Positions 17,423 through 48,643 of a stretch of 64,000 nucleotides of DNA are shown piece by piece. The notes beneath the pieces were generated by a model. The model was not told the origin of the DNA. It searched no databases and saw only the letters and a program-made list of their open reading frames with translations. A program made the translations under genes and the position numbers. Each line of letters opens with the position of its first letter. Positions within the stretch are counted from its first letter, which is position 1. The DNA is from a virus (taxonomy: Duplodnaviria; Heunggongvirae; Uroviricota; Caudoviricetes), in the IMG/VR virus record IMGVR_UViG_2821091796_000001, positions 1 through 64,000 of that record. One strand, written 5' to 3'.

Positions 17423-17425
17423 TCC

Positions 17426-17804: not shown

Positions 17805-17820
17805 GCGTCAAATTTGATCC
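17805..17820. promoter_or_regulatory. palindromic motif copy (core only) upstream of OMP gene
   Basis: gcgtcaaatttgatcc; additional half-sites ttttgaccc, atcaaaattg nearby. Confidence 0.35.
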
Positions 17821-18000
17821 CTTTAACCATCAAAATTGGGCAAAAATGCCATAATTCGTCGCATGCGCGAACTTGGTAATGTCTTACGCTTGCGTCAAAG
17901 TTTGTTGCAGGTTTTCTGAGGTTCGTTACCTATAGAAATTCGTAAGGATTTGGCGAACACTATCGCCTAATCAGAGGTTTTCAGGTCTGGGGAGGACTTA

Positions 18001-23524: not shown

Positions 23525-23562
23525 TATAACTAAAGAACGAAAAGACGAAAGCGCGAAAGAAC
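23525..23562 (+). repeat. ACGAAA tandem-hexamer element
   Basis: aagaACGAAAagACGAAAgcgCGAAAgaACGAgaac. Confidence 0.4.
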
Positions 23563-24043
23563 GAGAACAGCAAATGACCTGGAATTACATGAGAGGGTGG
23601 CTACCTCAGATCAAATGAGCCCGGCTGAAAGAAGCGCCGACACACATACGGTAATGCTGCCATTTGGAGCAAAGTCCGATAGTCGCCCATCCGTCAGGAT
23701 TATCTGGGTGAGATCTTCTCAAACGTATGCCTCACATTGTCCGGCTCGACCGGCAGCAGGTGTTGTTACGGAACTAACCCGCTTGATTGCTCACGATCCG
23801 CACCCTTCGTTGACCTGCACCTGCGGCAGGACTCAATGGGCACTGTCAACTCGGTGCGCGATCAATGAACAATCGTGAAGACAGATATAACCAGGAACGC
23901 GCTACGGCGCGTTTTCTCGTATCTGCACGCAGCCATGGCTGACCTTGGGCGAATCCCATGGCGGCCGGCGGATTAGCGATTTTGTCACTTGCATCAATTA
24001 GGCACATCATTGAATCCTAACCTCAGCTAGTGGGAGATAATCA

Positions 24044-24479: not shown

Positions 24480-24803
24480 GTGAGGCGAGTCATGATGGAC
24501 TATGCGGTAAAGGAAGTCGCCGTTGAAACAGCTCAGATTGGCCGTATGCGCGTTTTAGCGAGCGTGGGCGACTTGGCAAGGTATTTGCTGGAGGAATGGC
24601 CTGACGACGCGGGAGAGAAGCACAGGGCAGCGCGAGAAGCCTGTCTTGAAGCGCTTGCGGGCAAAATCTCTCCGGGCGTCGCGAGGATCGCATTTCTAGA
24701 GGCGGCCGAACAGGACAACGTATGGACCATGGCAACCCAGAGACCTGAATCGACCGGCAAGGTTGAGCACAGATTCAAGCGCCGTGGCGCATATCGCCGC
24801 TAA
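24480..24803 (+). CDS. hypothetical protein
   Basis: 107 aa. Confidence 0.35.
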   Translation: MRRVMMDYAVKEVAVETAQIGRMRVLASVGDLARYLLEEWPDDAGEKHRAAREACLEALAGKISPGVARIAFLEAAEQDNVWTMATQRPESTGKVEHRFKRRGAYRR

Positions 24804-25438
24804 TTCACAATCAACAGCGTGTCGTCGGGAAGCGGCTTCTGTAATTGGAGAGCCTCTTTGAAGGGTGCGGTCATCCAATGATCGACCTCCTCTGGTGTGC
24901 GCAAGATCACCGGCATTGCCTTTGGATGAATCGGCTTGACGACATTGTTTGGATCAGTCGTGAGAAAGCCAAACAGGGTGAAATCACCAGGCCCATCTTT
25001 GACGCGCCTCACGCCGGTCCACTGTGTCCACATACCGGCAAAGAAGAACAGCGGCTTGGTCTGATCCAGGGCGAAGAACACATTGGGCGTCTTTCCCGCC
25101 TCATCCTTGTAAGGGGCCGGCTCAGCAAAGCTGGTCACGGGCACGACGCACCGGTTTTCAAGCCCGTGATATTGTCTCCACCAAGGAAAATGTGAATTGC
25201 GGATATTTGACTGACCGGGATCGTAGTTCTTGCCGACCAGATGCTTAGGATCCGTGGGCAGCCCAAATTGCATAGTCGCCATCTCTCGCACACCATCGGT
25301 GCCATTACGGACGATAGGGGCAAAGGAGTTCTTGTAGACGTTGATATCGGGCTCAAGGTTGCGAGAGATATCTCGCAGAGCGCGAGTGAACAGAGTGATC
25401 TCCGCCTGATTGCTCGCCAGCTTAAAGTAGTTGCACAT
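24800..25438 (-). CDS. SRAP (SOS-response-associated peptidase, YedK/HMCES-like) abasic-site processing protein
   Basis: start MCNYF.. (Met1-Cys2 catalytic nucleophile), ~212 aa, conserved ...PIVRNGTDG ... HSHFPWW-like segments. Confidence 0.6.
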   Translation of the reverse strand: MCNYFKLASNQAEITLFTRALRDISRNLEPDINVYKNSFAPIVRNGTDGVREMATMQFGLPTDPKHLVGKNYDPGQSNIRNSHFPWWRQYHGLENRCVVPVTSFAEPAPYKDEAGKTPNVFFALDQTKPLFFFAGMWTQWTGVRRVKDGPGDFTLFGFLTTDPNNVVKPIHPKAMPVILRTPEEVDHWMTAPFKEALQLQKPLPDDTLLIVN

Positions 25439-25512
25439 CGACGTTCGCCTTCTTGACTCTTTTCCTAAATGAGAACAAATAAGGAACATATTCCGTTTTG
25501 AGCGTCAAGGAT

Positions 25513-28595: not shown

Positions 28596-28622
28596 ATAGA
28601 CGAAAACACGAAAGGACGAATT
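28596..28622 (+). repeat. ACGAAA tandem-hexamer leader element
   Basis: gACGAAAacACGAAAggACGAAttg then ATG 28625. Confidence 0.45.
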
Positions 28623-29004: not shown

Positions 29005-29040
29005 CGAAAACGACTTAACGAAATGACGAAAGGACGACTC
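29005..29040 (+). repeat. ACGAAA tandem-hexamer leader element
   Basis: aacgacttaACGAAAtgACGAAAggACGActc; near-identical copy at ~32908-32945. Confidence 0.5.
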
Positions 29041-30406: not shown

Positions 30407-30864
30407 GATGTTTCTCTTTCTGCGTTGCTTCGAAGTCTCTTATTCGCTTCGATGATTTGACTATAAGCATTTCTCTAAGCTTGTAAAGTCACTTACTGCA
30501 AAATAGATAACTTTTCTTTCATGTGCACATTTGACTCACAGAGCGCGCTAGAGCGCGTTGACGTGTTGCTAAGTGTATGTGAACGCGAAAGAGCTAGAAC
30601 GCGCTGTGTGACGCGCTGTGTTCGAATGCGTATATGTCGCGCGAGTTATCGAGCGTGCATTGAACGAAGTCTTAGAAAATTCGCGTGGTCGCTGTATGGG
30701 ATGCCTTCTGTCGCCTGAGCACTCCGGAAACGAAGCACCTCTATTCGTGGCAGAATGGCGCTCTACGGACGATAGGACGAAGGGACGAAATAGCGAATTC
30801 GCCATTTACCGGACTCGCTGCATTTGGTAATACGCAAGTGGGGACTTGGAGGAGTTGGGGTATC

Positions 30865-31713
30865 TTGTGGCATTTCGTAGAGAATGAAGCTCCTGTCGGG
30901 CCAGTGTCCGAGCAGGAAATGATTGATCGTATTCGTGACGGCCGAATTAAACCGTCAACGCTGGTCTGGTCCGAAGGCGCTGTTGGCTGGGAACCAGCGG
31001 ATACTGTGGAAGCTTTCAACAGGGTGTTCCGCGTAACTCCGCCTCCTCTTCCCTCTGCCACAAAAGAGCCGCCTCCTGTCGTTGCATCCGCTACTGTAAA
31101 AGAAGAACCAAGAGTATCCCTTCGGCCCGAACCGCCCGTAATCGAAGTGCAGGGCTCACCATGGTCTCGCTTCGCAGCTAGAGGGCTCGACCAGGTCATA
31201 TGGTCGATTCCAATGATTTTCGTGCTGTTGATGATTGTGGCGATCACTCACAGTCAGACGTTCATCAAGCTATTGGATAATCGCGTAGCCGCGATCCTGA
31301 TGTCGCTGCCCATCTTCGGTTTGTTCAACGCGCTATCGATGTCGATATTTGGGAACACTCTCGGAAAGGCCCTTATGGGCGTAGTCGTCAAAGCCAAGGA
31401 CGGAGCCAGGGAGGGCTTTCTGTTCTATCTCATTCGCGAGCTAAATGTTCTCGTTGTTGGCTTTGGATTTGGGATTCCATTCGTTTCTCTATTCACGCAA
31501 TTGTATCAGCACAGCCAGGTGAAAACAAAAGGTCAGGCAAGCTACGATAAAGGCGTTGCTCGGGTAGAGGTATATTTCACCAGCAATGTCCGCGTGGGTG
31601 TTGTGCTTACGGCTGTCGTGCTTGCAACCGTGTATTTCAATTCACCTGCCGCGGAACCTCTCGCAATTGCGTTGGGCAAAGCCGCCGGCAGTCTGGTCGC
31701 AAGTTTTCGCTAA
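30865..31713 (+). CDS. DUF4339(GYF-like)-RDD family membrane protein
   Basis: WHFVENEAPVGPVSEQEMIDRIRDGRIKPSTLVWSEGAVGWEPA (DUF4339-like) followed by multi-TM RDD-like domain; start uncertain (TTG 30865 or GTG 30838). Confidence 0.45.
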   Translation: MWHFVENEAPVGPVSEQEMIDRIRDGRIKPSTLVWSEGAVGWEPADTVEAFNRVFRVTPPPLPSATKEPPPVVASATVKEEPRVSLRPEPPVIEVQGSPWSRFAARGLDQVIWSIPMIFVLLMIVAITHSQTFIKLLDNRVAAILMSLPIFGLFNALSMSIFGNTLGKALMGVVVKAKDGAREGFLFYLIRELNVLVVGFGFGIPFVSLFTQLYQHSQVKTKGQASYDKGVARVEVYFTSNVRVGVVLTAVVLATVYFNSPAAEPLAIALGKAAGSLVASFR

Positions 31714-31949
31714 TTAACGAAGAGACGAAATGGCGAAAGCGCGGCTTTCACGTCCAGAGAAAAACCATGTATGTCGAGAAGAGCTACGCATGGTATTTCA
31801 GCCTCCTGAGTTCCAGTCTCTGTTCCTTGTCCAGTCCGCCGTGCTTCTTCAACCAGATGAGAAGCTGTAACCGGGCCGCATTACGGCGCTGCTGAATCTC
31901 GAGGGAACGAAAGGACGATTCCAATACTTCGTTCATTCGTTCAAATGCC

Positions 31950-32480
31950 TCAGACATAGGGTTTGCCCATCCAGTAATCGCGCACGATCTTGTCGGCGCG
32001 CTGCCAAAGGCCGAAATCTCCTCCCTGCAGAACAGTCAGGAGAACTTGCTTCTCGCGCATGTAGACTTTGGCAAAATCCGGGTCGTGTGCGACGATTGTG
32101 GCTGTGTTGTCGATGAGATCGCACAGCTTGATGGTCATGGCATCGTTCGAGATTGTGGCGATCCGCTCCGTCTCAAGCTTAAACCGTGTCTTCCGATTGC
32201 CAGCGCTCATGGGAACCTTGTTGGTCAGTTCATCAACCAGCTTGCAGACACGGACATCGAAATATTCGCGCAGCAGAGCCAGGGTGACGCCGGTATCCTC
32301 GACCACGTCATGCAGGTAGGCGGCGCAGAGCATGGCATCATCATAGTTCGCTGCTTGCTTAACGAGCTGCGCCACTGCGACTGGATGAACGATATAGGGT
32401 AGTCCCGTGTATTTACGGCGTTGATCGATTGCCGCATGCGCAGCATTGGCAAATAAGAGTGCATTTCCTGGAATATTCAT
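31950..32480 (-). CDS. small alarmone hydrolase (RelA/SpoT-type HD domain, (p)ppGpp hydrolase)
   Basis: AAYLHDVVEDTGVTLALLREYFDVRVCKLVDELT matches SpoT/Mesh1 HD hydrolase core; 176 aa single domain. Confidence 0.65.
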   Translation of the reverse strand: MNIPGNALLFANAAHAAIDQRRKYTGLPYIVHPVAVAQLVKQAANYDDAMLCAAYLHDVVEDTGVTLALLREYFDVRVCKLVDELTNKVPMSAGNRKTRFKLETERIATISNDAMTIKLCDLIDNTATIVAHDPDFAKVYMREKQVLLTVLQGGDFGLWQRADKIVRDYWMGKPYV

Positions 32481-32543
32481 CGCTGTGTTCTCTCTATCGT
32501 CAAATCGTCATTTCGCTTTATAGCGAAATAGCGCTAGAATATC

Positions 32544-32560
32544 AGTCAATTTTGATTTAC
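32544..32560. promoter_or_regulatory. palindromic motif copy in divergent region
   Basis: agtcaattttgatttac. Confidence 0.5.
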
Positions 32561-32590
32561 CTTTTGGTATTCAAAACAACGGAGACAAGC

Positions 32591-32833
32591 ATGTCTGAAA
32601 GACTATCAATCAAAGGCGATGTGAGCCACTCAGCAACAGAGCGGCAGAACCTCGAGTTCGTCGGTGCAGGTGGGCCGGGAATTATGGTTTCACTCGGGAC
32701 GGCCGATAATCTGCACACAGCAATCGCCAAGACACGTCTCGGGATCCTGCAGGACCAGGCGAACGGCGTGAAAGACCGCGACTATACACTTCATGTAGAG
32801 CCGGCTGCTTCCTCATGCACGACGGGAGAATGA
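32591..32833 (+). CDS. hypothetical protein
   Basis: 80 aa. Confidence 0.35.
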   Translation: MSERLSIKGDVSHSATERQNLEFVGAGGPGIMVSLGTADNLHTAIAKTRLGILQDQANGVKDRDYTLHVEPAASSCTTGE

Positions 32834-32907
32834 TCGTGGCTTGGGTTTTGCGGAAAGTAGCGCGCTATCTCGGTTCGGCTGGCAATGAGAGCCTCGGCGC
32901 CTGGGCG

Positions 32908-32948
32908 AGCTATGAACGACTTAACGAAATGGCGAAAGGACGAAAGCT
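32908..32948 (+). repeat. ACGAAA tandem-hexamer leader element
   Basis: aacgacttaACGAAAtggCGAAAggACGAAAgct then ATG 32952. Confidence 0.5.
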
Positions 32949-32951
32949 CTG

Positions 32952-33161
32952 ATGTTCGATATCTTCAAGGGAATCTTTCAATTCCTCATCTTTCTGATCG
33001 GCTTCGTCGTCACAATCATTGCGGCTTTGCTCGGCGGCACTATTCTGACGCTATTCTGGGCTGTGCCGGTATGGATGATAGCCGTCATTTCCATTGCGCT
33101 GGCTATCATCGTTGGTGCCTTGCTGGTCGAACTGTCAGACCTGCATATCGAGATCAGATGA
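32952..33161 (+). CDS. small hydrophobic two-TM protein
   Basis: 69 aa, almost entirely hydrophobic; shares leader with 29043 gene. Confidence 0.45.
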   Translation: MFDIFKGIFQFLIFLIGFVVTIIAALLGGTILTLFWAVPVWMIAVISIALAIIVGALLVELSDLHIEIR

Positions 33162-33434
33162 TCACTTCGCCGCCTTGTGCTTTTCGACCCAGGCGGCGAA
33201 GGCCTGCTCAAGCAGATCGCGATAACTGATATCGTGCGTTGCAGCCGTCAATTTAAACACGCGTTTGAACTCCTTATCGACCTTGAAGTTCAAATTTGCA
33301 TACTCTGTTTCAGTCATATTGTTCGGAACAGAAGTCGGCGCAAAGGTCGGCACTTCTGACAAACCACCCAGAAACGACGCCCTCGCGCGTTTTGGTGCCG
33401 GAACAGGGGCCTTCGTTGTCTTTGTGTCAGCCAT
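33162..33434 (-). CDS. ParG-like ribbon-helix-helix partition protein
   Basis: 90 aa, disordered basic N-terminus then short helical C-terminus; immediately downstream of and overlapping parA. Confidence 0.45.
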   Translation of the reverse strand: MADTKTTKAPVPAPKRARASFLGGLSEVPTFAPTSVPNNMTETEYANLNFKVDKEFKRVFKLTAATHDISYRDLLEQAFAAWVEKHKAAK

Positions 33435-34074
33435 TATACTTCTCCTCTATCTCGTTAACACGTGACACGATCTCCGCGGCCAACTGGTCCGCCCGCTCGT
33501 TCAATGTGGGGAAATTCGTCTCGGCAATCGTCAAGCCAACGTTCTGCGCCATTTGGTAGCCAGTCTTATGGCCGAGATCCGTCTCTGCAACGCGGTAGAT
33601 GCTCGACAGATATTGTCTGGCCTCCTGCACCGCGAGCTTGCTGTCCGTTGTCTTGTTGAGAACAAACAGAATGGTTTCCTTATCGACACCGCGCTCCACG
33701 AGCTCGTTGGCGAAGAGAATTTGCGGCTCCAGGTCGTCCAGCGTCAGTCCGGTCGGTATAACGTTGAGCGTGGCAATCCTGGCGATCTCAAGCGAGGATT
33801 GATCACTATCTGGCGTCCCATCGGCGACGATCAGGTCGTAATTGTCGCGCCGGATTGAGCGGATCGTTGTGCAGACCTCGGCAGCAATTTCAGGCGTCGC
33901 CCCAAGCGCCATTCGACGCGCCGCCCATTTGGTCGAAGTGAGCTGATTGACGTTGAAGTCGGCGATCTTGACGCTCCAGCCCGCCGACGCGTAGGTCCGG
34001 GCGATGAGACGCGCAAACGTTGATTTGCCGACGCCGCCCTTCTGGGACAAGCACGATATGACGTTTTCGACCAT
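33427..34074 (-). CDS. parA: ParA/ParF-type partition ATPase (small type Ib)
   Basis: deviant Walker A SQKGGVGKST, 215 aa. Confidence 0.75.
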   Translation of the reverse strand: MVENVISCLSQKGGVGKSTFARLIARTYASAGWSVKIADFNVNQLTSTKWAARRMALGATPEIAAEVCTTIRSIRRDNYDLIVADGTPDSDQSSLEIARIATLNVIPTGLTLDDLEPQILFANELVERGVDKETILFVLNKTTDSKLAVQEARQYLSSIYRVAETDLGHKTGYQMAQNVGLTIAETNFPTLNERADQLAAEIVSRVNEIEEKYNG

Positions 34075-34077
34075 TAG

Positions 34078-34112
34078 TCTTTTCGCTCCTGCGTCTTTTC
34101 GTTCTTTCGTCC
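34078..34112 (-). repeat. ACGAAA tandem-hexamer leader element in parA 5' UTR
   Basis: minus-strand reads aaggACGAAAgaACGAAAagACGcagg then ggagcgaaaagacta ATG. Confidence 0.45.
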
Positions 34113-34191
34113 TTACATGATTCGTAGGGATTCTCGCAAGACACGAAAAAGGGGCCAGAAGGCCCCTTTACACTTATTCAGGTTTCGGCTG

Positions 34192-35610
34192 CTAAGCAGC
34201 GAGCTCCTCCTTCAGACGCTTCTCGGTGCGAGCACGCAGCTCAGAAAGGGAGGTTAGTGCTTCGAGATTTCCCTTCGAGTAGACCACTTTGAGCAGATTG
34301 TCTTGCAGTTCGACCTGATCTTCAGCCAGTGTTACGACCGGATAATCAATGAGCCTTGTCGCGCAGACTGCAAGACGACCCGCCTTTGACGCCTTCGTCG
34401 GATCTGTCGCCGGCCGCTTCTGAACCGGAACCCATTCGCCATTGTCGATCTGAATTGCATTTGCCTTCATAGCAAAGCGCAGGTCATCGCGCATGACGCC
34501 CTGGAGAAGTCCGCCTCCCATGCCAACAGCGATATTGTCAGCCGACCAGCCTTCAAGCAGAAGGGTGCAAAAGAGTCGGTCGATCTTCTCGAGGTCCATG
34601 CCGTCGCCCTGGATGACGCGCACCTTTGGGTTCAACACCTTGTAGCCTTTCGAATTGATCGTCCCGCCGAACTTTTCCCAAAGCGCGTGAAGGACATCAA
34701 GAGGAGTCGTTACCGGATCACCGCTATCAGGACGAACAACCAGCGTTCCGCCCATCTTGAGCACTTTTTCCTTCAATTCGCCGCCCCAGACGTTCTCGAC
34801 TGCATTCATGAGGTCGTAGCTGTCAGAAACGACCGCAACGATACCAGACCCGAACTGATCGATCATATTGCTGTAGGCATCGGCCTCGCGATCCTTGCCC
34901 CAAGAAGTGATGGTCGAATGTTCCGCGGCTGGGATTGAGAAAGCTGGCATCTCGTTGGCGCCATAGTATCGACGGGCAAATTCCAGCGCTTCCATCGTGT
35001 CAGTTCCTTTGAAATTGACCAGATGCGCGAACCCGCCAAGTGCTGCACTTTCGCTCGAAGAAACGCCCCTTGCGCCGAAATCATGCAGTTTGAAGGGTAT
35101 CTGACCATCCGGATCTTCGGAGCTTTGCAGAAGCGCCCTATAGATGATCTTTTTCACATGGTAAGAAAGCGTTGCGACAGTCGAGGGATACCAAATTGCG
35201 CGGAGCAGGGCGGTTTCGATGAAGGTCGAGAGCCAGGGAAGACGCGGATCCAGATTGCGCACCTGCACAAGCGGCGTTCCCAGCGGAACGACGGATCCTT
35301 CGGCAAGCGCCTGAATTTCGATCGGCAATCGGCCGTTATGCTCGAGCCGGATAATATCCCATCCTTCACGATTGAACGGCAGGCCATGCTCCTTGCAGAC
35401 CAGTTCGGCCTCATCGACATCAAGGCTGTCGATCTTCTCTGTGAGATACTGCTTGATGAACGCCTGCAGACCAACAAAAACGACCTCTTTGAAAATCCCG
35501 CCGGCGCGTGCTTCGACATAGGCCGAAACAGCGGTCGTCTGGGGCGGATATTGAAGGAAGTGAGACTGTTTGTAGCTATCGGTAGCAAGAATAAGATTGC
35601 GGAAAGACAT
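34192..35610 (-). CDS. nadV: nicotinamide phosphoribosyltransferase (NadV/Nampt)
   Basis: 472 aa; N-terminal ILATDSYKQSHF and overall Nampt-family layout. Confidence 0.8.
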   Translation of the reverse strand: MSFRNLILATDSYKQSHFLQYPPQTTAVSAYVEARAGGIFKEVVFVGLQAFIKQYLTEKIDSLDVDEAELVCKEHGLPFNREGWDIIRLEHNGRLPIEIQALAEGSVVPLGTPLVQVRNLDPRLPWLSTFIETALLRAIWYPSTVATLSYHVKKIIYRALLQSSEDPDGQIPFKLHDFGARGVSSSESAALGGFAHLVNFKGTDTMEALEFARRYYGANEMPAFSIPAAEHSTITSWGKDREADAYSNMIDQFGSGIVAVVSDSYDLMNAVENVWGGELKEKVLKMGGTLVVRPDSGDPVTTPLDVLHALWEKFGGTINSKGYKVLNPKVRVIQGDGMDLEKIDRLFCTLLLEGWSADNIAVGMGGGLLQGVMRDDLRFAMKANAIQIDNGEWVPVQKRPATDPTKASKAGRLAVCATRLIDYPVVTLAEDQVELQDNLLKVVYSKGNLEALTSLSELRARTEKRLKEELAA

Positions 35611-35660: not shown

Positions 35661-36719
35661 TTAGAAACCGATCATCTTCTGCAAGATTGACCAGTGATCC
35701 TCGAAGAACACCTGTGGCTCGAGGTCGCCAAGACGATACCAGTCGGCATGTTCGGCATCGTCGGAGCCCTTCACTGTGAAAAGCTCCTTTGAATCGGGTA
35801 GAACGAACCGATAGGCTGTTGTCACAATCCTACCGCGCAGTGAGCGCTTGGGGTGATCGAACAATTCGCTTCCGGTGATGAAGGATGCGAGCATCGAGGG
35901 CGGGATTTCGCCCTTTCTGTCAGAGATTTTGGTCTCTTCCTTCAGTTCACGCACCGAAGCATCGCGGATCTGCTCGTTCTCGTTGACGAAGCCGCCGGGA
36001 AGAGCGAGCAGGCCGTGACCGTATTCCTTGCCGCGACGGATCAACAGCACATGACCGGATTGTGTGACACAGGCGTCGGCCGTCAGGAACGGGCCTTTGC
36101 CATAGGTCTTGCGATAGTCGATCAGATATTGCTGCTCATACACGCGCCTCTTGAACTCTTCGGTGAGCATGTATTCTTCCAGAAAACCCGCCACCTGGTC
36201 ATCAAGACCGCGTGTAGGGATCAAGGGAAGGGGTTGAAAGTAGGCAGCACGAATGTTCGACGCATTGAATGTGCCGAACTGACTGCCGATCTGGATCGAC
36301 TCCCACTCAGGAAAGCGTTTCAGATAAAAGCCGGTAGCGTCCTTCCCGAAGCCGGCAAGAGCGACCTTGAAGTCATTGATGCCTGAAGTGTGGAAACCGT
36401 GATTGTTTCCGTATTCAAGAATGATATCGGTAATCGTGCGCTGCACGCTCGCGATCCAGGCACTATCATTGTAGAGATTATCTTCCAGCGGCTCAACGAT
36501 GAGACGTTCAGTTGCCATTTCGTGGCGAAAGACACGATGGATCATCTCCTTGCGTTCCTCGAAAGTGAACGGGTTGGCGAAGTCCCTGGCGATGTTGGAA
36601 GATCCGATCAGCACGATCACTCGCTCAGCCTGTTTTAAAGCTTCACGAATGACGTGCTGATGACCGATATGCAGTGGTTGAAATCTGCCGATGAATACGG
36701 CGAAGTGATACTTAGACAC
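35661..36719 (-). CDS. nadM: bifunctional NMN adenylyltransferase / Nudix hydrolase (NadM-Nudix)
   Basis: FIGRFQPLHIGH (H/T-x-G-H nucleotidyltransferase motif) N-terminal; C-terminal Nudix box GGFVNENEQIRDASVRELKEETKI. Confidence 0.8.
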   Translation of the reverse strand: MSKYHFAVFIGRFQPLHIGHQHVIREALKQAERVIVLIGSSNIARDFANPFTFEERKEMIHRVFRHEMATERLIVEPLEDNLYNDSAWIASVQRTITDIILEYGNNHGFHTSGINDFKVALAGFGKDATGFYLKRFPEWESIQIGSQFGTFNASNIRAAYFQPLPLIPTRGLDDQVAGFLEEYMLTEEFKRRVYEQQYLIDYRKTYGKGPFLTADACVTQSGHVLLIRRGKEYGHGLLALPGGFVNENEQIRDASVRELKEETKISDRKGEIPPSMLASFITGSELFDHPKRSLRGRIVTTAYRFVLPDSKELFTVKGSDDAEHADWYRLGDLEPQVFFEDHWSILQKMIGF

Positions 36720-36844: not shown

Positions 36845-36890
36845 AAGGACGAAAGGACGAAATCGCCCTTTCGTTTATTCGTTATACCCT
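36845..36890 (+). repeat. ACGAAA tandem-hexamer element with inverted partner
   Basis: aaggACGAAAggACGAAAtcgcccTTTCGTttattcgtt. Confidence 0.4.
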
Positions 36891-38394: not shown

Positions 38395-38440
38395 CGCTAA
38401 TTCGCCTTTTCGTTACTTCGTTCTTTCGTAGTTTCGCAGC
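38395..38440 (-). repeat. ACGAAA tandem-hexamer element upstream of minus-strand kinase operon
   Basis: minus-strand reads ctACGAAAgaACGAAgtaACGAAAaggcgaa, ~60 nt upstream of palindromic motif and start. Confidence 0.45.
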
Positions 38441-38595
38441 TTCATTTCGGCAAGCCGCAGTTTGCGCTGCAATTTGGCATTCTCTTCCTGGAGCAGTTCA
38501 AGTTCGTGTTCGATCCGGTCCTCGGACAGAACCGACAGCCCTCGAGCGTTGAAAAAGTGGATTGGATCCACGAGGCGGGTTGGGGAGATGGTCAT
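38413..38595 (-). CDS. small coiled-coil protein
   Basis: 60 aa, coupled to helicase gene. Confidence 0.3.
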   Translation of the reverse strand: MTISPTRLVDPIHFFNARGLSVLSEDRIEHELELLQEENAKLQRKLRLAEMKLRNYERTK

Positions 38596-40190
38596 GCGGC
38601 TTCCTTCCGAGCAAATATAGACCAGTTGAAGTCCTGACCTTCAGGCAAGATGCCTTCAGCGAAGCCAGGTGTTTGCTGAATGATGGCGCGACGCTGCGCA
38701 TCATGCTCGCGTAGCGTCGTGTTGAGGTTGGCTGAATACATCGCGATGAACGCAAAATTCGGAATGCCTTTGGGCTTTCCACGCAAACCGCGGCCGATAC
38801 GCTGGCGTAGCGCAACTTCGGCCTTGCCGCCGCCTGCGAGCATCACCAGACCAACAGCCGGCACGTCAACGCCAACATCGAGAATGGTTGTGCCAATCAA
38901 CCCGTCTATCGTGCCATTCTTAAGAGCGGTGAGGGCGGCTTTGCGCTCCTTCTGGTTGTTCTCGCCGCGAATAAACATAATCCGCAGACCAACGCGCTTC
39001 ATCAGCTCGACCAGCGTGTCGCCATGCGACGTGTGCTGAACCAGAACCATAAAGGGCAGACCGACCTTGCGCGCCATCAGACCATCCCGGATGATGGCCT
39101 TGTGCATGTTCATGTTGTCGGTATAGCCAAGCTTATATGCGCGCTGCCAAGGCGAGGTGCGATGCAACCCCTGTGCACCCTCAACGCTCATGAACTTGAA
39201 GTGCGGTGTCGCAAGAATACCGCGCTTGATCAAAAGCTCTTCGGAGACTTTGATTAGAATCGAGCCAAAAGCTGCCATCAGACGCAGATTGTCCTGCGCA
39301 TTGGTGCGCATGAACGGCGTCGCAGTCAGTGCAACCCGGATCTGCGCATTCTTGCAGTATTTCAGAATCTCGTAATAGGAGTTGCCACCGGCCTCGTGCG
39401 CTTCCTCACCGATGACCACTTCCATCATCTCCAAGACCTTGATGATCTTGTTGCGTTTGGCCACCTTCTCATCATAGCGCTGCTTTGCCAGTTTGCCGAC
39501 ATCTTCCGGCGCAATGAACGTATCCTTCTTCTTGTTGAGGTGCTGAGATTTGGTGACTGCGCGCCGCTCTCGTGCAAGGTCAGGAACCTCGAGCGCCTGA
39601 ACAAGCGTTTGGACCATGCCAAGGTTCACGCCCTTGGTAACTTTCATCTCACCATCACCCATCAGGCCGGTGTTGAGACCGAGTGCATCAAGTTGATCCT
39701 TCATCTGATAGAGCAGAACTCCGCGCGTCGTGATGAACAGCGTCATGCGCCGGTAACGCGCCATGATCAGCTTGGCGATCTTCGACTTGCCGCCGCCGGT
39801 CGCCACTTGAATGATGCCGCGGCCGTATTTCTCCACACTTCGAAGGGCTTTGATCTGGAAATCATAGTCCGGATTGTCGTTTCCGAACTCGTCGACGATT
39901 GGACTAAACGGACCAAGTGGTTCTGGCAGAGCTTTGCGCACCAAGCGCACCTGATAGCCCTTCTTGATCAGCGTGCGCTCAACGAGGTGAACGAAGCCAG
40001 CCGGAAATGTGTGATTGGTCATCTGGTAGAAAGATGAATAGGCCGAGACCATACCCACATTGCTTGCGAAAGTGCCATCGATCGAGGAGTCGTTATAAGA
40101 CAGCAGGTCCGAAACGATCGCATCTACCGATTTGTCCGCATTCCGGATCTGGGCCGTCACAGCGTTGTGAGCCAGGATTACAGATTTCAT
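38592..40190 (-). CDS. superfamily-2 DEAD/DEAH-type helicase (type III restriction res-like/phage DNA helicase)
   Basis: motif I ATGGGKS, motif II-like VIGEEAHEAG, motif VI QRIGRGLRGK. Confidence 0.7.
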   Translation of the reverse strand: MKSVILAHNAVTAQIRNADKSVDAIVSDLLSYNDSSIDGTFASNVGMVSAYSSFYQMTNHTFPAGFVHLVERTLIKKGYQVRLVRKALPEPLGPFSPIVDEFGNDNPDYDFQIKALRSVEKYGRGIIQVATGGGKSKIAKLIMARYRRMTLFITTRGVLLYQMKDQLDALGLNTGLMGDGEMKVTKGVNLGMVQTLVQALEVPDLARERRAVTKSQHLNKKKDTFIAPEDVGKLAKQRYDEKVAKRNKIIKVLEMMEVVIGEEAHEAGGNSYYEILKYCKNAQIRVALTATPFMRTNAQDNLRLMAAFGSILIKVSEELLIKRGILATPHFKFMSVEGAQGLHRTSPWQRAYKLGYTDNMNMHKAIIRDGLMARKVGLPFMVLVQHTSHGDTLVELMKRVGLRIMFIRGENNQKERKAALTALKNGTIDGLIGTTILDVGVDVPAVGLVMLAGGGKAEVALRQRIGRGLRGKPKGIPNFAFIAMYSANLNTTLREHDAQRRAIIQQTPGFAEGILPEGQDFNWSIFARKEAA

Positions 40191-40277: not shown

Positions 40278-40982
40278 TTGTCGCAACCGAAAACCGAACT
40301 GCTTGACCCGAATACGCTCCAGAAAAACCCCTGGAACACCAATATCACCACACCGGAGAACGACGCCAAGCTCGAGGAGTCGATTAAGAAGTTCGGCTTT
40401 ATTCGGCCAATACTCGTTCGCGAAGTAGAGGAGGGTCTTCAGATCCTTGGTGGTGAGCATCGATGGGAAATTGCCAAGAAGCTAGGAATCGACGTTCTGA
40501 TCCTCAACCTCGGCGCTCTCGATGATCCGACAGCCAAACAAGTCTCAATCCTCGACAATACGCGCTATGGAACGGATGACACGCTCGCCTTCGCCGAACT
40601 CTTGAAGGAACTCTCAGGCTACGATGACCTGCAGTATCTTCCCTACTCAGATGCCGATTTCGAAGAAATCTTCTCGACTACTCATATAGCGCTCGACGAC
40701 TTGGGTATTGAGGAGAACTTCGACAATGACGAGGAAATCGACAATACACCTCCCGAACCCAAGGCGCCAAAGACACACACTGTCATGCGCTTTAAGGTTC
40801 CCATCCTCGATGCCGAGCGCATCACGGCGAAAATCGCCGAAACTCGTCGCGATCATGATCTCAATTCCGCTGATGAACTCACCAATGCCGGCGATGCTCT
40901 TGTTCATCTTCTCGTCAGTCGATCGGCTCCTGTCGACGTTAGTGACATGGAAGAAGCCCTTCTGGCGGATCTCGACGTATGA
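40278..40982 (+). CDS. ParB-like nuclease domain protein
   Basis: FGFIRPILV ... ILGGEHRWEIAKKLG (ParB/Srx fold); TTG start. Confidence 0.6.
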   Translation: MSQPKTELLDPNTLQKNPWNTNITTPENDAKLEESIKKFGFIRPILVREVEEGLQILGGEHRWEIAKKLGIDVLILNLGALDDPTAKQVSILDNTRYGTDDTLAFAELLKELSGYDDLQYLPYSDADFEEIFSTTHIALDDLGIEENFDNDEEIDNTPPEPKAPKTHTVMRFKVPILDAERITAKIAETRRDHDLNSADELTNAGDALVHLLVSRSAPVDVSDMEEALLADLDV

Positions 40983-41164
40983 GCACCAAATTTCCTGATT
41001 GCGTATCCTGTAAATTCTACAACAAGCGCTTCGTCGGCAAACGCGCCAATCCAGTCTGCGGAGAGTGCGACAACGGTGAGTTCTATGAGGAGTGGGTGCG
41101 CAACAGGGCTCTGAACGACAATGAATTGATGTCCCTTTACGGAAAGATGCACCATGACAACTAA
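40979..41164 (+). CDS. zinc-ribbon protein
   Basis: CVSC ... CGEC. Confidence 0.4.
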   Translation: MSTKFPDCVSCKFYNKRFVGKRANPVCGECDNGEFYEEWVRNRALNDNELMSLYGKMHHDN

Positions 41165-41816
41165 GACCCCAGCTGAGACAGTTGAGCTCTGGGATATTGA
41201 CCGGATCAAGGAATACAAACTCAACGCCAAGATCCATAATGAAAAACAGGTCACTGACCTTGCAAAGTCGATTAAAGCATTCGGTTTCTCGCAACCGATC
41301 ATTGTCTGGACGGACGGCACCATCATTGCAGGTCATGGGCGTCGACTGGCTGCCATCTCACTGGGAATGAAGAAGGTTCCTGTCGTATGTCGCTCGGATC
41401 TTTCCAAGGCGGAAGCCGATGCTATGCGCCTTTCCGACAATAAGGTGACATCGGTCGAATACGATATGTCCATGCTGCAGGATGAGCTTCAGCGCCTCGT
41501 CGGCGAAGATATCGATATCGATCTGACCGGTTATTCCGACTTTGAAATCCAGTTTTCGACAGATGATATCGGAGAAATGGACGAGGGCGCCTTTGTTGGC
41601 GATATCGGCGCCGCTGTCGAGGTCCAAGCTGAAGAGAACAAAAGGGCTGCAGGCGTCGTTGATGATGTGGCTGCGCCAATCACCGATGCGCTTGGCTTCA
41701 AGCGCGTGACCATCGCCCAGTCCCGCACCATTCGGGAACTGGTCGCTCGCGTCGAAGCCAAGACCGGCAAAACTGGAGTGGATGCGCTGATAGCTGTGCT
41801 ATCGGCCGCCGCATAA
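41154..41816 (+). CDS. ParB-like nuclease domain protein
   Basis: FGFSQPIIVW ... IIAGHGRRLAAISLG. Confidence 0.6.
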   Translation: MTTKTPAETVELWDIDRIKEYKLNAKIHNEKQVTDLAKSIKAFGFSQPIIVWTDGTIIAGHGRRLAAISLGMKKVPVVCRSDLSKAEADAMRLSDNKVTSVEYDMSMLQDELQRLVGEDIDIDLTGYSDFEIQFSTDDIGEMDEGAFVGDIGAAVEVQAEENKRAAGVVDDVAAPITDALGFKRVTIAQSRTIRELVARVEAKTGKTGVDALIAVLSAAA

Positions 41817-45095: not shown

Positions 45096-45758
45096 ATGAG
45101 CGAAGAAGCACTCTCCGGAACTGAGCTAGGCGAAGACGCTGAAGAAGCAGGTAAGAAGTTCCGCAAACTAACACCTGCGGAACGTGCGGAAATCCGCGAG
45201 CTATATGAATTGGGTAAGGCTCGAATGACCGAACTTGCCGATAAATACGGCTGTTCACGTCAGACGCTCTCAAGATGGTTCCGGGACGAGAAGATTAAAT
45301 GGGGCTCGCGCGCCGAAGAAGTGAAGGAGGCGGCCAAGGCGGCCATCACTGCCTCGACCACTGCAACCGTAACGTCGATCGCGGAGCGGTTCCAGGATCA
45401 TCGGGCGGATTGGATCGAGGAAACGCGCGTCAATTCCTACAAAGCGTTGCGTATGGCCGAGCTCCTGGCAAAAAAAACAGTCCAGGAAGCAATGAAAGCG
45501 GCCAAGCCGCTTGCCACGATCGACGAAGAGATGAAGGCGATCCACCGCTATCAAAAAGTGCTCTTGGAGAATGCTGACGCACGTTTGCGCATCCTAAATG
45601 CAGACGACGTTGTTGCCGAAGACGATCTTCCGTCGATCCAGATTGACGATCTGACGGCTGAGGATCTAGTCCGCTTCCACCGCGAGAATGGCGTGGATGA
45701 TGAAGAGGAGATCGACGAGATCCTCAAGAATTTCGATGAGCCGGTGGTCATCGAATAA
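45096..45758 (+). CDS. terminase small subunit (putative)
   Basis: HTH near N-terminus (RMTELADKYGCSRQTLSRWF), acidic C-terminus, immediately upstream of TerL. Confidence 0.5.
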   Translation: MSEEALSGTELGEDAEEAGKKFRKLTPAERAEIRELYELGKARMTELADKYGCSRQTLSRWFRDEKIKWGSRAEEVKEAAKAAITASTTATVTSIAERFQDHRADWIEETRVNSYKALRMAELLAKKTVQEAMKAAKPLATIDEEMKAIHRYQKVLLENADARLRILNADDVVAEDDLPSIQIDDLTAEDLVRFHRENGVDDEEEIDEILKNFDEPVVIE

Positions 45759-47017
45759 TGCTGTTCCTGCATAAAGGCCAAAAGACAGTCCTGTCTGATC
45801 TGCACCGCTTCCGGGTGATCGTGGCCGGCCGTCGTTGGGGCAAGACACAGGTTAGCCGCGTCGCACTGATCAAGGCCGCTACGTCCAAGAAGAAGCAGCT
45901 CGTCTGGTATGTAGCGCCAACCTACTCAATGGCGCGCGGCATTCTCTGGGACGAATTGAAAAATTCAATTCCGCGCGCCCTTATCAAGAAGAACGGCATC
46001 AACGAAACACGCATGACCATTCGCCTGGTCAATGGCAGCCGTATCGAACTGAAAGGTGCCGATAAGCCCGACTCGCTACGCGGTGTCGGTATTCACTTCC
46101 TTGTCATCGACGAAGCCCAGGACATCCGCAAGGAGACCTGGTTCGAGGTTCTGCGTCCGACGCTCTCGACAACAGGCGGCCGAGTGCTGTTCATCGGCAC
46201 GCCAAAGGCATTCAACTGGCTCTACGATCTCTATGTTGAGGGCCAGCGCGGAGACGTTTATCTTGATGAACGCGGACGCAAGGTCGTCAATGATTGGAAG
46301 TCGTGGCAGTTCCGCACCTCGATGTCGCCATTTATTCCGCCGAGCGAAATCCGCTCTGCAAGAAAGGATCTAGATCCGCGCACGTTCCGCCAGGAATACG
46401 AAGCCTCGTTCGAGACCATGTCCGGCCGAGTCTACTACGCCTTCGACCGCCGTGTTCATACAGGTGACTATCCATTCAATGACAAGCTGCCCGTCGTCAT
46501 TGGTCTCGACTTCAACATCAATCCGATGTCGGCCATCATCATGCAGGAGCAGCCCAACGGCGAGATCTGGGTTGTCGATGAGGCCATTATGATGGGCTCC
46601 AATACGCAGGAAGTCTCCGACGAGATGGCAAAGCGGTTCTATCGCAATATGAACCAGGTCACATTCTTTCCGGATCCGGCCGGCGCATCCCGTAATCACG
46701 ACCGAGGCGAGTCCTCAATCGAGATCCTTCGAGATGCCGGCTTTAAGAAGATTTTGTTCAAGCGAAAACATCCGTTGGTTGCTGATCGCGTAAACTCGGT
46801 CAATCGTCTGCTTCTGTCGGCTGACGGCCAGAACCGTCTCAAGGTAAACCGCAACTGCAAGGGTCTCATCGATAGTCTTGAGCAGACAGTCTATAAGGAA
46901 GGCTCGCGCGACGTGGACAAGTCGGCCGGTGTTGAACATGCCACTGATGCTCTCGGCTACTATTCGGATTTCCGCCATCCCGTTGTCGTCAAGCGGGTTC
47001 ACGGCGCATCTTATTAA
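45758..47017 (+). CDS. terL: terminase large subunit
   Basis: Walker A VAGRRWGKT, Walker B LVIDEAQ, C-terminal nuclease-like region; ATGA coupling. Confidence 0.8.
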   Translation: MLFLHKGQKTVLSDLHRFRVIVAGRRWGKTQVSRVALIKAATSKKKQLVWYVAPTYSMARGILWDELKNSIPRALIKKNGINETRMTIRLVNGSRIELKGADKPDSLRGVGIHFLVIDEAQDIRKETWFEVLRPTLSTTGGRVLFIGTPKAFNWLYDLYVEGQRGDVYLDERGRKVVNDWKSWQFRTSMSPFIPPSEIRSARKDLDPRTFRQEYEASFETMSGRVYYAFDRRVHTGDYPFNDKLPVVIGLDFNINPMSAIIMQEQPNGEIWVVDEAIMMGSNTQEVSDEMAKRFYRNMNQVTFFPDPAGASRNHDRGESSIEILRDAGFKKILFKRKHPLVADRVNSVNRLLLSADGQNRLKVNRNCKGLIDSLEQTVYKEGSRDVDKSAGVEHATDALGYYSDFRHPVVVKRVHGASY

Positions 47018-47046: not shown

Positions 47047-47083
47047 ATTTTGGCAATAGTTCAATGAAGGTTCTGTGGCAGCG

Positions 47084-48643
47084 ATGAGTATTTCGAAAAA
47101 TGATGACCCTTTGCGCACGTTCTATGAGCGCAGGCATCCCGAATACCATCGCCTTGCCCCCGTATGGCGCTTTCTACAAGCGACCTATGATGGCGGCCGC
47201 GCTTGGTTTGCCGACAATATCTTCAAGTTCCACAAAGAAGGTCAGCAGGAGTTTAACGATCGCCTCAATCGCGCTTACCGCTTCAATCACACACGCGAGA
47301 CCGTCGATCTTGTGCAGAAGTATCTGTTCAAGGCTCCCGTATCACGCAGCGAAGACGCCCCACAGGTCGTAAAGGACTTCTGGGAAAACTCGACGCTTTC
47401 AAACCTGAATATCGACTCTCTAATGCGCATGTCCACTGCCTCCAACTCAGTGAAGGGCAGGGCGGCCATTTTCGTGGACAACAATATGCGAGAAGGCGGC
47501 ATGACAATCGCCGAGGCGCGCGCGGCCGGTATTCGCATCTATGCCTATCTCATCACGGCAACCGATCTGCTTGATTATGCCTGGGATGAAGAGGGTGATG
47601 GTGGACTGCTTTGGGTGAAGGTGCGCGAGTTCGTGCGCGACGACAAGGATCCGATTGCTTCGTGTGGTGATATCATCGAACGCGTTCGGCTCTGGACGCG
47701 CAAGGAATGGATCCTTTTTGAGGAGGTTGAGTCCGAAGTCGATCCTCTCAAACGCTCCAAGAAGAAGCAGAAAGTCATTCGTGAGATCGACCGCGGCGAG
47801 CACAATCTCGACGTGGTGCCTTGCGTCTTCGTTGATCACAATGTTGGCGATGCACCTTACGCAGTTCCGGGTCTCATCGATGATATCGGATATCTTGACC
47901 GCGCCGTTGCCAATTACCTTTCCAATCTTGATGCGATCATCCAGGACCAGACATTCTCCCAACTCGCCATGCCGGCTCAAGCAGTCATGCCAGGCGATGA
48001 CGAATACGATGCCGTTCTATCGATGGGCACCAAGCGCGTCTTCCTGTTCGACGGCGCAGGCGGCAAACCTGAATACCTTTCTCCGGATCCAAAGCAGGCA
48101 CAGATCATCCTGACGGTGATCGAAAAGATCATCAATGAAATCTACCACACTGTCGGGCTCGCCGGCGAGCGCACCAAGCAGGACAACGCGGTCGGCATCG
48201 ACAACTCGTCCGGTGTCGCTAAGGCTTACGATTTCGAGCGGGTGAACTCGCTACTCCTGTCCAAAGCGCAAAGCTGCGAGAACGCAGAAAACAAGCTTGT
48301 TCAGCTGGTCTGCAAGTGGGCGAACATCGCAATCCCAACAGACAAGCTCGTTCAGTATCCACTGACCTTCGACGTGATGCGCTTGGCTGACGAACTGTCG
48401 GTCGGCGAAGCGCTCGGCAAGCTGGCTGCTCCGAATGAAGTGCGCCGCGAGCAGATGCGTCAGATCGTCGACAAGCTTTTTCCTCGCCTCAAGAAAGACC
48501 TTCGCGAAGCAATGGAGAAAGACATCAAAACGTGGCTGGAGGGCGAAGATCTCGTTCTCAATCCACCATCAAGTTTCGGAAGCAAACCTGCAACGTCCCG
48601 ATCCCGTCAAGGCTCGGTCACAGCAAAAACGCCAACGAAATAA
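47084..48643 (+). CDS. portal protein
   Basis: ~520 aa gene directly after terminase, followed by scaffold and capsid. Confidence 0.6.
   Translation: MSISKNDDPLRTFYERRHPEYHRLAPVWRFLQATYDGGRAWFADNIFKFHKEGQQEFNDRLNRAYRFNHTRETVDLVQKYLFKAPVSRSEDAPQVVKDFWENSTLSNLNIDSLMRMSTASNSVKGRAAIFVDNNMREGGMTIAEARAAGIRIYAYLITATDLLDYAWDEEGDGGLLWVKVREFVRDDKDPIASCGDIIERVRLWTRKEWILFEEVESEVDPLKRSKKKQKVIREIDRGEHNLDVVPCVFVDHNVGDAPYAVPGLIDDIGYLDRAVANYLSNLDAIIQDQTFSQLAMPAQAVMPGDDEYDAVLSMGTKRVFLFDGAGGKPEYLSPDPKQAQIILTVIEKIINEIYHTVGLAGERTKQDNAVGIDNSSGVAKAYDFERVNSLLLSKAQSCENAENKLVQLVCKWANIAIPTDKLVQYPLTFDVMRLADELSVGEALGKLAAPNEVRREQMRQIVDKLFPRLKKDLREAMEKDIKTWLEGEDLVLNPPSSFGSKPATSRSRQGSVTAKTPTK

Follow-up and report, generated by a model that had tools for sequence, protein, structure and literature searches.

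Does the overlapping gene pair at positions 32,952 to 34,074 of IMG/VR virus record IMGVR_UViG_2821091796_000001 form a partition module that maintains a phage genome as a plasmid, and does the small hydrophobic open reading frame (ORF) beside the pair belong to that module? A first reading of the sequence (the original prediction) had proposed such a module. We followed it up by computation on positions 1 to 64,000 of the record (64,000 nucleotides, here called the window), which represent 64 kb of a 118-kb element. The locus is probably a partition cassette of type Ib (ParF/ParG-like), and its bearer a temperate siphovirus of the pLM21S1/RHEph10 group that persists as a low-copy plasmid of about 118 kb. 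All three ORFs were confirmed at the positions given for them, and none is a chance ORF. The features of the cassette, with the analyses behind each of them, are as follows.

33427..34074, minus strand: parA, predicted to encode a small type Ib, ParF-like Walker-type partition ATPase of 215 aa (ORF list; PHROG, NCBIfam and PDB profile searches)
33162..33434, minus strand: parG-like gene of 90 aa, predicted centromere-binding protein and autorepressor (gene overlap, AlphaFold (AF2) model, Foldseek, PDB profile)
34075..34112, minus strand: five boxes phased at 8 bp, predicted operator and centromere-like site (Tandem Repeats Finder (TRF), phased-box test, TP228 geometry)
34113..34140, minus strand: possible parA promoter, CTTGCG-N18-GTAAGG, of low confidence (sequence reading)
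34148..34169, minus strand: hairpin resembling an intrinsic terminator, AAAGGGGCC-TTCT-GGCCCCTTT followed by T's (perfect 9-bp inverted repeat)

The 215-aa protein carries the deviant Walker A motif with its signature lysine (KGGVGKS, residues 12-18, within SQKGGVGKST, residues 10-19). As the motif starts at residue 12 of so short a chain, the N-terminal domain of type Ia ATPases would not fit in front of it, and no N-terminal DNA-binding, helix-turn-helix (HTH) or regulatory domain is present. The protein matched PHROG 164, 'ParA-like partition protein', at 4.8e-24, and the NCBIfam model NF041546 (ParA_partition) at an E value of 1.1e-19 over model positions 1-188 of 203. When a family profile built from 11 orthologues (48-83% identity) was searched against the PDB, the best matches were TP228 ParA (5u1g, 3.9e-9) and ParF (4dzz, 1e-8), both over the full length, with 3cwq also among the best full-length matches and other ParA/Soj proteins following. 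The protein aligns end to end with the 206-aa ParF and the 214-aa TP228 ParA, and residues K12, K17, D39 and D85 are invariant in all 11 orthologues. A MinD or Cpa/Tad class was considered for the ATPase and rejected, as the matches were weak and confined to the N-terminal part: the profile reached 7e-4 with MinD, its best stretch being the first ~78 residues, and 1.4e-5 with MipZ, also over an N-terminal stretch, and the match to TIGR01968 had an E value of 0.016. The hallmarks of MinD are missing, since the C-terminus (...RVNEIEEKYNG) is acidic and min genes are absent nearby. By these comparisons the protein appears to be nearer to ParF/Soj than to MinD, MipZ, NUBPL or tyrosine-kinase P-loops. 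The assignment to the small ParA/ParF ATPases made in the original prediction is thereby supported, and the grouping with MinD or Cpa/Tad proteins that it had named beforehand as refuting was not seen.

The partner gene is translationally coupled to parA. The parA stop codon and the start of the 90-aa ORF overlap by 8 nt (ATGGCTGA), and a GAGGAG Shine-Dalgarno sequence precedes the ORF. Its product is basic (pI 9.5 overall, 10.3 for the N-tail); residues 1-45 form a disordered basic tail, and the C-terminal part is a ribbon-helix-helix (RHH) domain with the strand NLNFKVD. An alignment of 70 family members was used both for the AF2 model and for a PDB profile search. In the model, the predicted local distance difference test score (pLDDT) is 87-96 over residues 41-90, exceeding 90 for 46-89, and low over residues 1-45; an extended segment (46-53) is followed by two helices (54-66 and 71-89). 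The PDB matches found by Foldseek were RHH proteins, among them CopA, StnY, ParG (1p94), CopG and Arc, with TM(target) values of 0.75-0.88 for the top matches. Among 177,635 PDB sequences, the family profile ranked ParG first (3.1e-3), omega second (3.5e-3) and omega again third. ParG and omega are the textbook centromere-binding proteins of type Ib systems. A single-sequence phmmer search of the RHH protein against the PDB returned only noise (a sorting nexin); other single-sequence matches were RHH_10 at 2e-3, below the cut-off, phrog_6024 at 5.5e-8 and an Arc-like PHROG at 0.02. Across the family, Pfam found RHH_10 in 28 of the 70 members, ParG (PF09274) in 15 and omega (Omega_Repress, PF07764) in two, the ParG and omega matches all being weak. 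As far as these profiles indicate, the relation of the 90-aa protein to ParG and omega is one of remote homology and not of family membership. The family itself is large, with 1047 cluster representatives at E<=1e-3.

The tail of the RHH protein has a conserved motif, T-(K/R)-A-x-V-P-x-P-P-(R/K)..F-L..(D/N)-N-M, in which P15, L22, N39 and M40 hardly vary and PxP has a K or R after it. By analogy with the tail of ParG (PMC7308502), we infer that it is a candidate ParA-activating peptide. The parA/RHH pair is conserved in every relative examined; the two genes overlap by 4-11 nt in the phage and plasmid relatives (loci L001-L010) and are adjacent or overlapping at the loci from genome contigs. 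On a 23-kb Bartonella plasmid the pair (ParA 58% identical) stands next to the RepA replication gene, an ordinary plasmid par context, and it also occurs on small plasmids of Nostoc, Halomonas and Sulfitobacter. The original prediction of a basic, overlapping protein with a ParG-like organisation therefore holds, given the pI, the 8-nt overlap, the RHH fold and the top PDB matches to ParG and omega.

The sequence in front of parA offers a candidate site for such a protein. Up to the ATG, the leader (minus strand, 34112->34075) reads GG ACGA AAGA ACGA AAAG ACGC AGGA GCGA AAAG ACTA, with the AGGAG Shine-Dalgarno sequence of parA inside the array. TRF found a period of 8 with 6.2 copies, and the phased-box test gave p=0.027. 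In TP228, the OF site before parFG consists of eight ACTC boxes with 4-bp spacers and binds one ParG dimer per box; OF and parH share the 4+4 geometry, and OF alone has centromere activity, of which four boxes keep about half (PMC3130281). On this analogy, the boxes at 34075-34112 are the likely binding site of the RHH protein. Phased boxes precede parA also in L002, L005, L006, L007, L008, L011, L012, L015 and L017, and arrays after the RHH gene were found in L001, L005, L006 and L008, unlike the window. Of the centromere-like repeats suggested by the original prediction, the array in front of parA was found, whereas 33150-33450 proved to be coding sequence without an array: the search there for long repeats or iterons gave only chance-level short matches. 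An inverted repeat at 33165-33201, within the 3' end of the RHH gene, has no T-run and is thus a doubtful terminator.

Because the nadV terminator lies just upstream, parA needs its own promoter in the ~35 bp between. The hairpin at 34148-34169 is predicted to end the nadM-nadV operon and to insulate parA. The closest relative, L004, keeps the promoter outline (CTTGAT-N18-GTATAG), and a scan of 31500-35000 for the sigma-70 consensus returned zero sites. The NAD-salvage pair directly upstream of parA consists of nadV (nicotinamide phosphoribosyltransferase, 34192-35610, minus strand) and nadM-Nudix (35661-36719, minus strand). A nadV-nadM module has been reported for pLM21S1 (PMC4447125), and its position relative to par differs between the window and that plasmid. 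A GTTAACC element stands ~50-60 nt upstream of the parA ATG in L001, L003, L007, L005, L002, L006, L009 and L010; the window and L004 are without it, nadV and the terminator having replaced that region.

We then compared ParA-RHH loci more widely, using 30 loci from two phyla drawn from a genome collection by an alignment-based scan (a single-ParA scan confirmed none). Most relatives have phased arrays before parA, often also after the RHH gene, and the box varies by lineage. ACGA/GCGA(AA) boxes are found in the window, L004, L001, L003, L007 and L005, and ATAG/AGCT boxes in L002 and L006. On the Bartonella plasmid, GTAT/GTAA boxes are phased over 72 and 64 bp on the two sides of the operon. 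RHH proteins with an NFK[VM] strand pair with CGAAA-type boxes, including those of Bacteroidota metagenome-assembled genomes, in which ParA is only 36-38% identical; in this class the repeats are ATTTAGCGA on either side of the locus in L034, AACGAAAT in L041 and GCACGA in L018-L025. Those with a TFNMP strand pair in six of six cases with TAGCT/CTAG/GCTA boxes. The association between strand and box gave Mann-Whitney p values of 0.003 and 0.0006, uncorrected for phylogeny. Since the strand residues of RHH proteins read the major groove (PMC3130281), this covariation is the pattern expected if the 90-aa protein reads the boxes. A strand-to-box code over 30 loci could help to annotate partition sites in the RHH family of ~1000 clusters.

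The element around the cassette belongs to a siphovirus. The following phage genes were recognised in the window, and the parA-RHH pair stands 12 kb from the morphogenesis genes on the same replicon.

45758-47017: large terminase, TerL (Pfam scan)
47075-48643: SPP1-type portal (Pfam scan)
56098-60834: 1578-aa ORF, assigned by its position at the site of the tape-measure gene in relatives

The window represents a siphovirus of the known pLM21S1/RHEph10 group of phage-plasmids. Its nearest phage relatives are the Rhizobium siphoviruses RHEph10, RHph_Y2_11, RHph_N1_15, X66, B1VFA and V1VFA-S (115-122 kb), with identities of 57-62% for ParA and 65-70% for TerL. Orthologues of both proteins are found on six closed circular plasmids of 115-119 kb, in the following hosts.

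Shinella zoogloeoides, Pararhizobium qamdonense and Sinorhizobium sp. LM21 (pLM21S1): closed circular plasmids
Rhizobium beringeri (pRlX6), Methylobacterium oryzae and Methylobacterium sp. AMS5: further closed circular plasmids

Homologues of the RHH protein, the small membrane protein and ParA are also carried by many contigs of ~109-122 kb from Ensifer, Rhizobium, Ancylobacter, Faunimonas and Paracoccus isolates, and a second tier of TerL relatives comprises Acinetobacter plasmids of ~110 kb and, at similar sizes, phages and plasmids of Klebsiella. All three products of the locus are annotated NCBI proteins of Phyllobacterium myrsinacearum (WP_182552246-8), encoded on one replicon-sized contig (118,187 bp) of an isolate assembly; the representative P. 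myrsinacearum genome in the scanned collection is without the element. DNA identity to relatives is only ~67%, even inside parA, and the closest relative, L004, is the Logan contig SRR31344419_46 (118,412 bp; RHH protein 66-67% and ParA 83% identical). Judged by these sequence comparisons, the element appears to add a fairly divergent member to a phage-plasmid group already known, and its host genus, Phyllobacterium, appears to be new to the group. L004 also holds, at 16875-18427, three genes with a Rap1a domain (Rap1a is a type VI immunity protein family), none of which was seen in the window.

Dziewit et al. (2015; PMC4447125) described pLM21S1 and RHEph10 as the archetypes of a prophage group that is plasmid-like and has REP (RepC) and PAR modules. 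B1VFA and V1VFA-S have been described as phage-plasmid-like, with parA, parB and repC (Gunathilake et al., 2025; PMC12509600), and in the work of Pfeifer et al. RHEph10 falls on the margin of the phage-plasmid group AB of Acinetobacter. Extrachromosomal maintenance as a plasmid-prophage, as originally suggested, is thus strongly supported by the circular plasmids and by the descriptions of the group as plasmid-like prophages (PMC4447125, PMC12509600). Module and lifestyle had already been noted for these elements, so that the finding is correct but largely expected.

With these components, the cassette would be expected to work as follows. RHH dimers would coat the 8-bp-phased ACGA(AA) boxes in the parA leader, and this coating would both repress parA-parG transcription and build the partition complex. 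The disordered N-tail of the RHH protein would contact ATP-bound ParA dimers spread over the nucleoid and stimulate their ATPase, and a ParA gradient would separate the sister prophage-plasmids before division. DNA binding, ATPase stimulation and centromere activity are here extrapolated from TP228 ParFG and pSM19035 delta/omega.

Boxes of the same kind are not restricted to the par locus. When a strict 8-bp phase and three or more units were required, seven CGAAA arrays were counted in the window, compared with 0-1 in shuffled sequences; looser criteria gave about twelve, as follows.

11079-11092, 23530-23566, 28601-28621, 29018-29040, 30770-30798 and 31718-31738: CGAAA arrays
36849-36862, 38400-38436 and 61184-61204: CGAAA arrays, in addition to those at 32924-32946 and 34075-34112 and the inverted one at 32510-32529

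Several of the dispersed (A/G)CGAAA arrays end in CGAATTAG. In 50 kb of pLM21S1, whose RHH protein has the TFNMP strand, we found no CGAAA arrays and about nine TAGCT arrays, with three TAGCT arrays within 1.2 kb around par and the membrane ORF; 50 kb of RHph_Y2_11 has five GCGAA arrays. Orthologous leaders, namely those of the gene after the helicase and of the membrane ORF, carry the box of their own lineage, and the NFKV strand is present in one ORF of the window only. Tentatively, and with a confidence that leans towards doubt, we propose, as the simplest reading, that the RHH protein is an omega-like master regulator, with arrays at ten or more transcription units, in leaders or promoter regions, and with partition coupled to prophage gene control. 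The putative regulon may include parA, the gene of the 69-aa membrane protein and a gene for a deoxynucleoside monophosphate (dNMP)-kinase-like protein, and the set of arrays may have been rewritten in concert with the strand (NFKVD with CGAAA here, NFKVD with GCGAA in RHph_Y2_11, TFNMP with TAGCTA in pLM21S1). The dispersed arrays may also be multiple centromere-like loading sites on the 118-kb replicon. Omega of pSM19035 is both a centromere-binding protein and a regulator with arrays of short repeats at several promoters; its sites are 7-bp heptads in three promoter regions, and copy number and a toxin-antitoxin system are under its control. Should the dispersed arrays prove to be true binding sites, these phage-plasmids would offer a natural setting for a partition protein that also regulates genes genome-wide.

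The second question concerns the hydrophobic ORF that faces the cassette, which has two predicted transmembrane segments and ends a small operon with the following features.

32952..33161, plus strand: 69-aa hydrophobic ORF with two transmembrane segments, last gene of orf80-orf45-orf69 (hydropathy, third-position G+C content, homologues)
32924..32946, plus strand: three phased boxes, ACGAAATG GCGAAAGG ACGAAAGC, before the 69-aa ORF (TRF, array scans)
32591-32833, plus strand: 80-aa ORF (ORF list)
32815-32952, plus strand: 45-aa ORF, overlapping the start of the 69-aa ORF (TGATG)
32505..32563, no strand assigned: control region of the plus-strand operon, with inverted GCGAAA boxes ATTTCGCT / AGCGAAAT at 32510-32529, then a copy of the dispersed palindrome described below, ATCAGTCAATTTTGATTTAC

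The 69-aa ORF is convergent with the 90-aa ORF, and their stop codons abut. Its grand average of hydropathy (GRAVY) is 1.91 and its G+C content at third codon positions (GC3) is 0.66, typical of genes in the window. The sequence before it (32924-32946) is ACGAAATGGCGAAAGGACGAAAG, an array 217 bp past the RHH stop codon, and the leaders of the orthologous ORFs in L002 and L006 have the TAGCTA boxes of that lineage. Positional homologues of 62-73 aa, with two transmembrane segments and a G-x-G...P turn, exist in RHEph10, RHph_Y2_11, V1VFA-S, pLM21S1 and a Pararhizobium plasmid; at L001, L002, L003, L006 and L007 they are convergent after the RHH gene, and in relatives the ORF follows a peptidase operon. 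A profile search returned 16 homologous clusters, most of them on contigs of 115-122 kb. No such ORF stands beside par in nine relatives (L004, L005, L009-L013, L015, L016), which comprise the closest relative L004, Shinella, both Methylobacterium plasmids, Ancylobacter, Chelativorans, Faunimonas, Paracoccus and Methylobacterium UNC378MF, and as it is missing in so many it is not part of the partition module. These comparisons indicate a real, lineage-restricted accessory gene that is not a chance ORF and is not required for partition. The boxes in its leader suggest, as our best guess, a membrane protein that is expressed in the prophage and regulated together with par. The original prediction was right about a hydrophobic ORF with an ACGAAA-type leader, but that leader is not private to it, being shared with about ten other genes.

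Database searches gave the 69-aa protein no match in Pfam, PHROG, NCBIfam or PADLOC, and a UniRef label 'DUF983 family' was discarded (E=2.4, 9 bits against a cut-off of 22.6). The 80-aa and 45-aa ORFs have no PHROG or PADLOC match, and PADLOC defence-system models gave nothing meaningful on six local proteins. An antisense or type I toxin arrangement was also rejected, as relatives have a bidirectional terminator between the membrane ORF and the RHH gene. Adjoining the small-ORF operon, at 31950-32480 on the minus strand, is an HD_4 / RelA-SpoT-type HD phosphohydrolase (1.3e-14), which may be a (p)ppGpp or nucleotide hydrolase.

Could the phased ACGAAA arrays be generic 5' leader or translation signals that the RHH protein does not read, the true centromere being elsewhere, possibly outside the window? 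About ten of them precede unrelated genes, all in the sense orientation and several adjoining start codons; they contain AAGGA or AGGAG runs resembling Shine-Dalgarno sequences, and the array at parA is no longer than those at 23530-23566 or 38400-38436. However, pLM21S1 and V1VFA-S have TAGCTA arrays that are not rich in purines, ParA-RHH pairs on unrelated small plasmids and Bacteroidota contigs are flanked by the matching type of array, and the box type follows the RHH strand. The switch is complete genome-wide, with 7 CGAAA and 0 TAGCT arrays in the window versus 0 CGAAA and ~9 TAGCT loci in pLM21S1. MetJ binds tandem 8-bp units. So does ParG, itself an RHH protein (PMC3130281). We consider a generic signal rather unlikely on this evidence. 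Even more doubtful is that the 69-aa protein is a partner of par acting as a membrane toxin in post-segregational killing, as a holin or as a superinfection-exclusion factor, the roles once suggested for it and none of which gained support. Two transmembrane segments, a conserved position next to par in six elements and, in the window, L002 and L006, leader boxes of the type that the lineage uses, which may reflect co-regulation and expression in the prophage, would fit such a partner; its absence beside par in the nine relatives, the closest one among them, does not. Neither do the terminator of the relatives, which leaves no conserved antisense arrangement and argues against a hok-like toxin, the lack of any family match, and a neighbourhood without endolysin, made of two small ORFs in the window and of a peptidase in relatives, which argues against a holin.

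Two other readings concern the cassette itself. The window encodes two paralogous proteins with a ParB_N domain at 40278-40982 and 41154-41816, both on the plus strand, which match phrog_723 and phrog_930 and are divergent from a UvsW-like helicase at 38592-40190. That one of these, and not the RHH protein, is the partner of ParA, the RHH protein being only a transcription factor, would agree with the 'parA, parB' of the literature, with the strong matches to PHROG 'ParB-like partition protein' (1.6e-53 and 3.3e-73), with their conservation near the helicase in all relatives and with the ParB/RepB/Spo0J names that the Prokaryotic Genome Annotation Pipeline (PGAP) gives to some orthologues. We find this very improbable: the proteins have 220-234 aa, in which Pfam finds the ParB_N domain only; among their PHROG matches are nuclease families and the N-terminal part of a DNA methyltransferase family; and their genes form a divergent operon ~6 kb from parA, on the far side of the helicase. 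Small RHH partners go with ParA proteins of this class (215 aa, no N-terminal domain), the RHH gene overlaps parA, and the Bartonella pair beside RepA has no ParB among the genes listed within 3 kb on either side. Least probable of all is that the pair positions or organises phage DNA in lytic growth, or is a decaying remnant in an essentially virulent phage. RHEph10, the RHph_* phages and B1VFA/V1VFA-S were isolated as plaque formers, the papers cited on the group report no lysogens, and ParA genes occur also in 36-48 kb phages of Aeromonas, Vibrio and Rhodobacter; yet the same phage is found on six closed circular plasmids and on many replicon-sized contigs of isolate genomes, the catalytic residues are strictly conserved, and the pair resides on ordinary small plasmids of Bartonella, Nostoc, Halomonas and Sulfitobacter.

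Several observations weigh against a partition cassette of type Ib in a plasmid-prophage. At 70.8 bits, ParA is below the curated cut-off of 180 for NF041546, which suggests a diverged subfamily to which the equivalog name ParA_partition cannot be assigned, and the RHH protein of the window has no Pfam ParG match, its sole Pfam match being RHH_10 at 2e-3. Profile searches for ParA and ParG, as called for in the original prediction, thus gave a divided answer, with TP228 ParA/ParF and ParG/omega the best in the PDB and both curated family cut-offs unreached. In the window no array directly follows the RHH gene (phased-box test p=0.15); the array before parA is short, with five boxes, and not par-specific, about ten similar arrays standing in other leaders, all oriented with the downstream gene, so that it could be a general leader signal with another reader. 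The association of strand and box ignores kinship. Two ParB_N-domain proteins 6 kb away are named 'parB' in the literature (PMC12509600), mitomycin C failed to induce pLM21S1 (PMC4447125), and the papers cited on the pLM21S1/RHEph10 group describe no partition-stability assay. A Pfam scan of 36 proteins of the window showed neither a RepC-like protein nor an integrase, with ~54 kb lying outside the window; a larger parH-like site, RepC, a master repressor or an integrase may be located there.

A type Ib cassette would correct the annotation of the group: the likely partner of ParA is an overlooked 90-aa RHH protein and not the 'ParB-like' proteins with a nuclease domain. Reports on the group (PMC4447125, PMC12509600) name parA and parB and mention neither the RHH partner nor the phased boxes. 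The reading also offers a concrete prediction for the centromere and operator, the 8-bp-phased ACGA(AA) boxes.

A second dispersed element was seen in the window, a ~20-bp palindrome, GT(A/C)A(A/G)TCA-N4-TGA(C/T)T(T/G)AC, at 23 intergenic sites, of which the following are examples.

2928, 6309, 9189, 13432, 15677, 29813, 32542, 38330 and 40237: palindrome sites
45067, 47027, 49736, 50694, 54707, 55338, 56076 and 61227: further palindrome sites

In many cases a TATAA-like hexamer precedes the palindrome and a ribosome-binding site follows within 10-20 nt; the sites include those in front of the terminase, portal and tail genes. A palindrome of this type is also present in RHph_Y2_11 (16 in 50 kb), and pLM21S1 has another, TAAGTAAG-N3-CTTACTTA, in equivalent places (14 in 50 kb). 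These palindromes could be operators of a master repressor, phage promoters or 5' hairpins of mRNAs; the C1 operators of P1 are a parallel for the first of these.

Other cargo of the window includes a membrane protein with GYF_2 and RDD domains (30685-31713, plus strand); the CGAAA array at 30770-30798 falls inside its longest ORF, so that the true start is probably downstream of the array. A FadL/TodX-type outer-membrane beta-barrel protein (18001-19296, plus strand; Toluene_X 3.2e-17) is unusual cargo and possibly serves lysogenic conversion or receptor masking. Further cargo is as follows.

7613-8998, plus strand: RtcB RNA ligase
15864-16054, plus strand: tRNA-Met and tRNA-Cys
19373-19849, minus strand: protein with a DnaA C-terminal HTH
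24800-25489, minus strand: SOS-response-associated peptidase (SRAP)
9992-10597, plus strand: SPFH/Band 7 protein

Compared with known systems, the cassette resembles TP228 parFGH in its small ParA (~206-215 aa), in an RHH partner encoded directly downstream with a disordered N-tail, and in a candidate site of 4-bp boxes and 4-bp spacers directly before the ATPase gene. It differs in the very low sequence identity, in the box (ACGA/GCGA(AA), as against ACTC), in the number of boxes (five at parA, as against 8+12), in the similar arrays spread over the whole replicon and in its host, a 118-kb phage and not a resistance plasmid. With delta/omega of pSM19035 it shares an RHH profile for which omega is the second-best PDB match and at least ten arrays that suggest omega-like behaviour, whereas the period is 8 bp, the putative regulon much larger and the genome that of a phage. 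As in P1 ParAB-parS and N15 SopAB, ParA would drive the maintenance of a prophage in the form of a low-copy plasmid; both of those belong to type Ia, in which ParA is large, with a regulatory domain at its N-terminus, ParB has an HTH and the sites are parS or sopC, whereas that of the window appears to be type Ib with an RHH partner. The closest counterparts are the pLM21S1, RHEph10 and B1VFA elements, which agree in size (115-122 kb), in identity (ParA 57-64%, TerL 65-70%) and in the gene order of two ParB_N genes, helicase, parA, RHH gene and small membrane ORF, the nadV-nadM module being shared with pLM21S1; unlike them, the window has nadV-nadM inserted directly upstream of parA and has lost the downstream intergenic array, so that the membrane ORF abuts the RHH gene.

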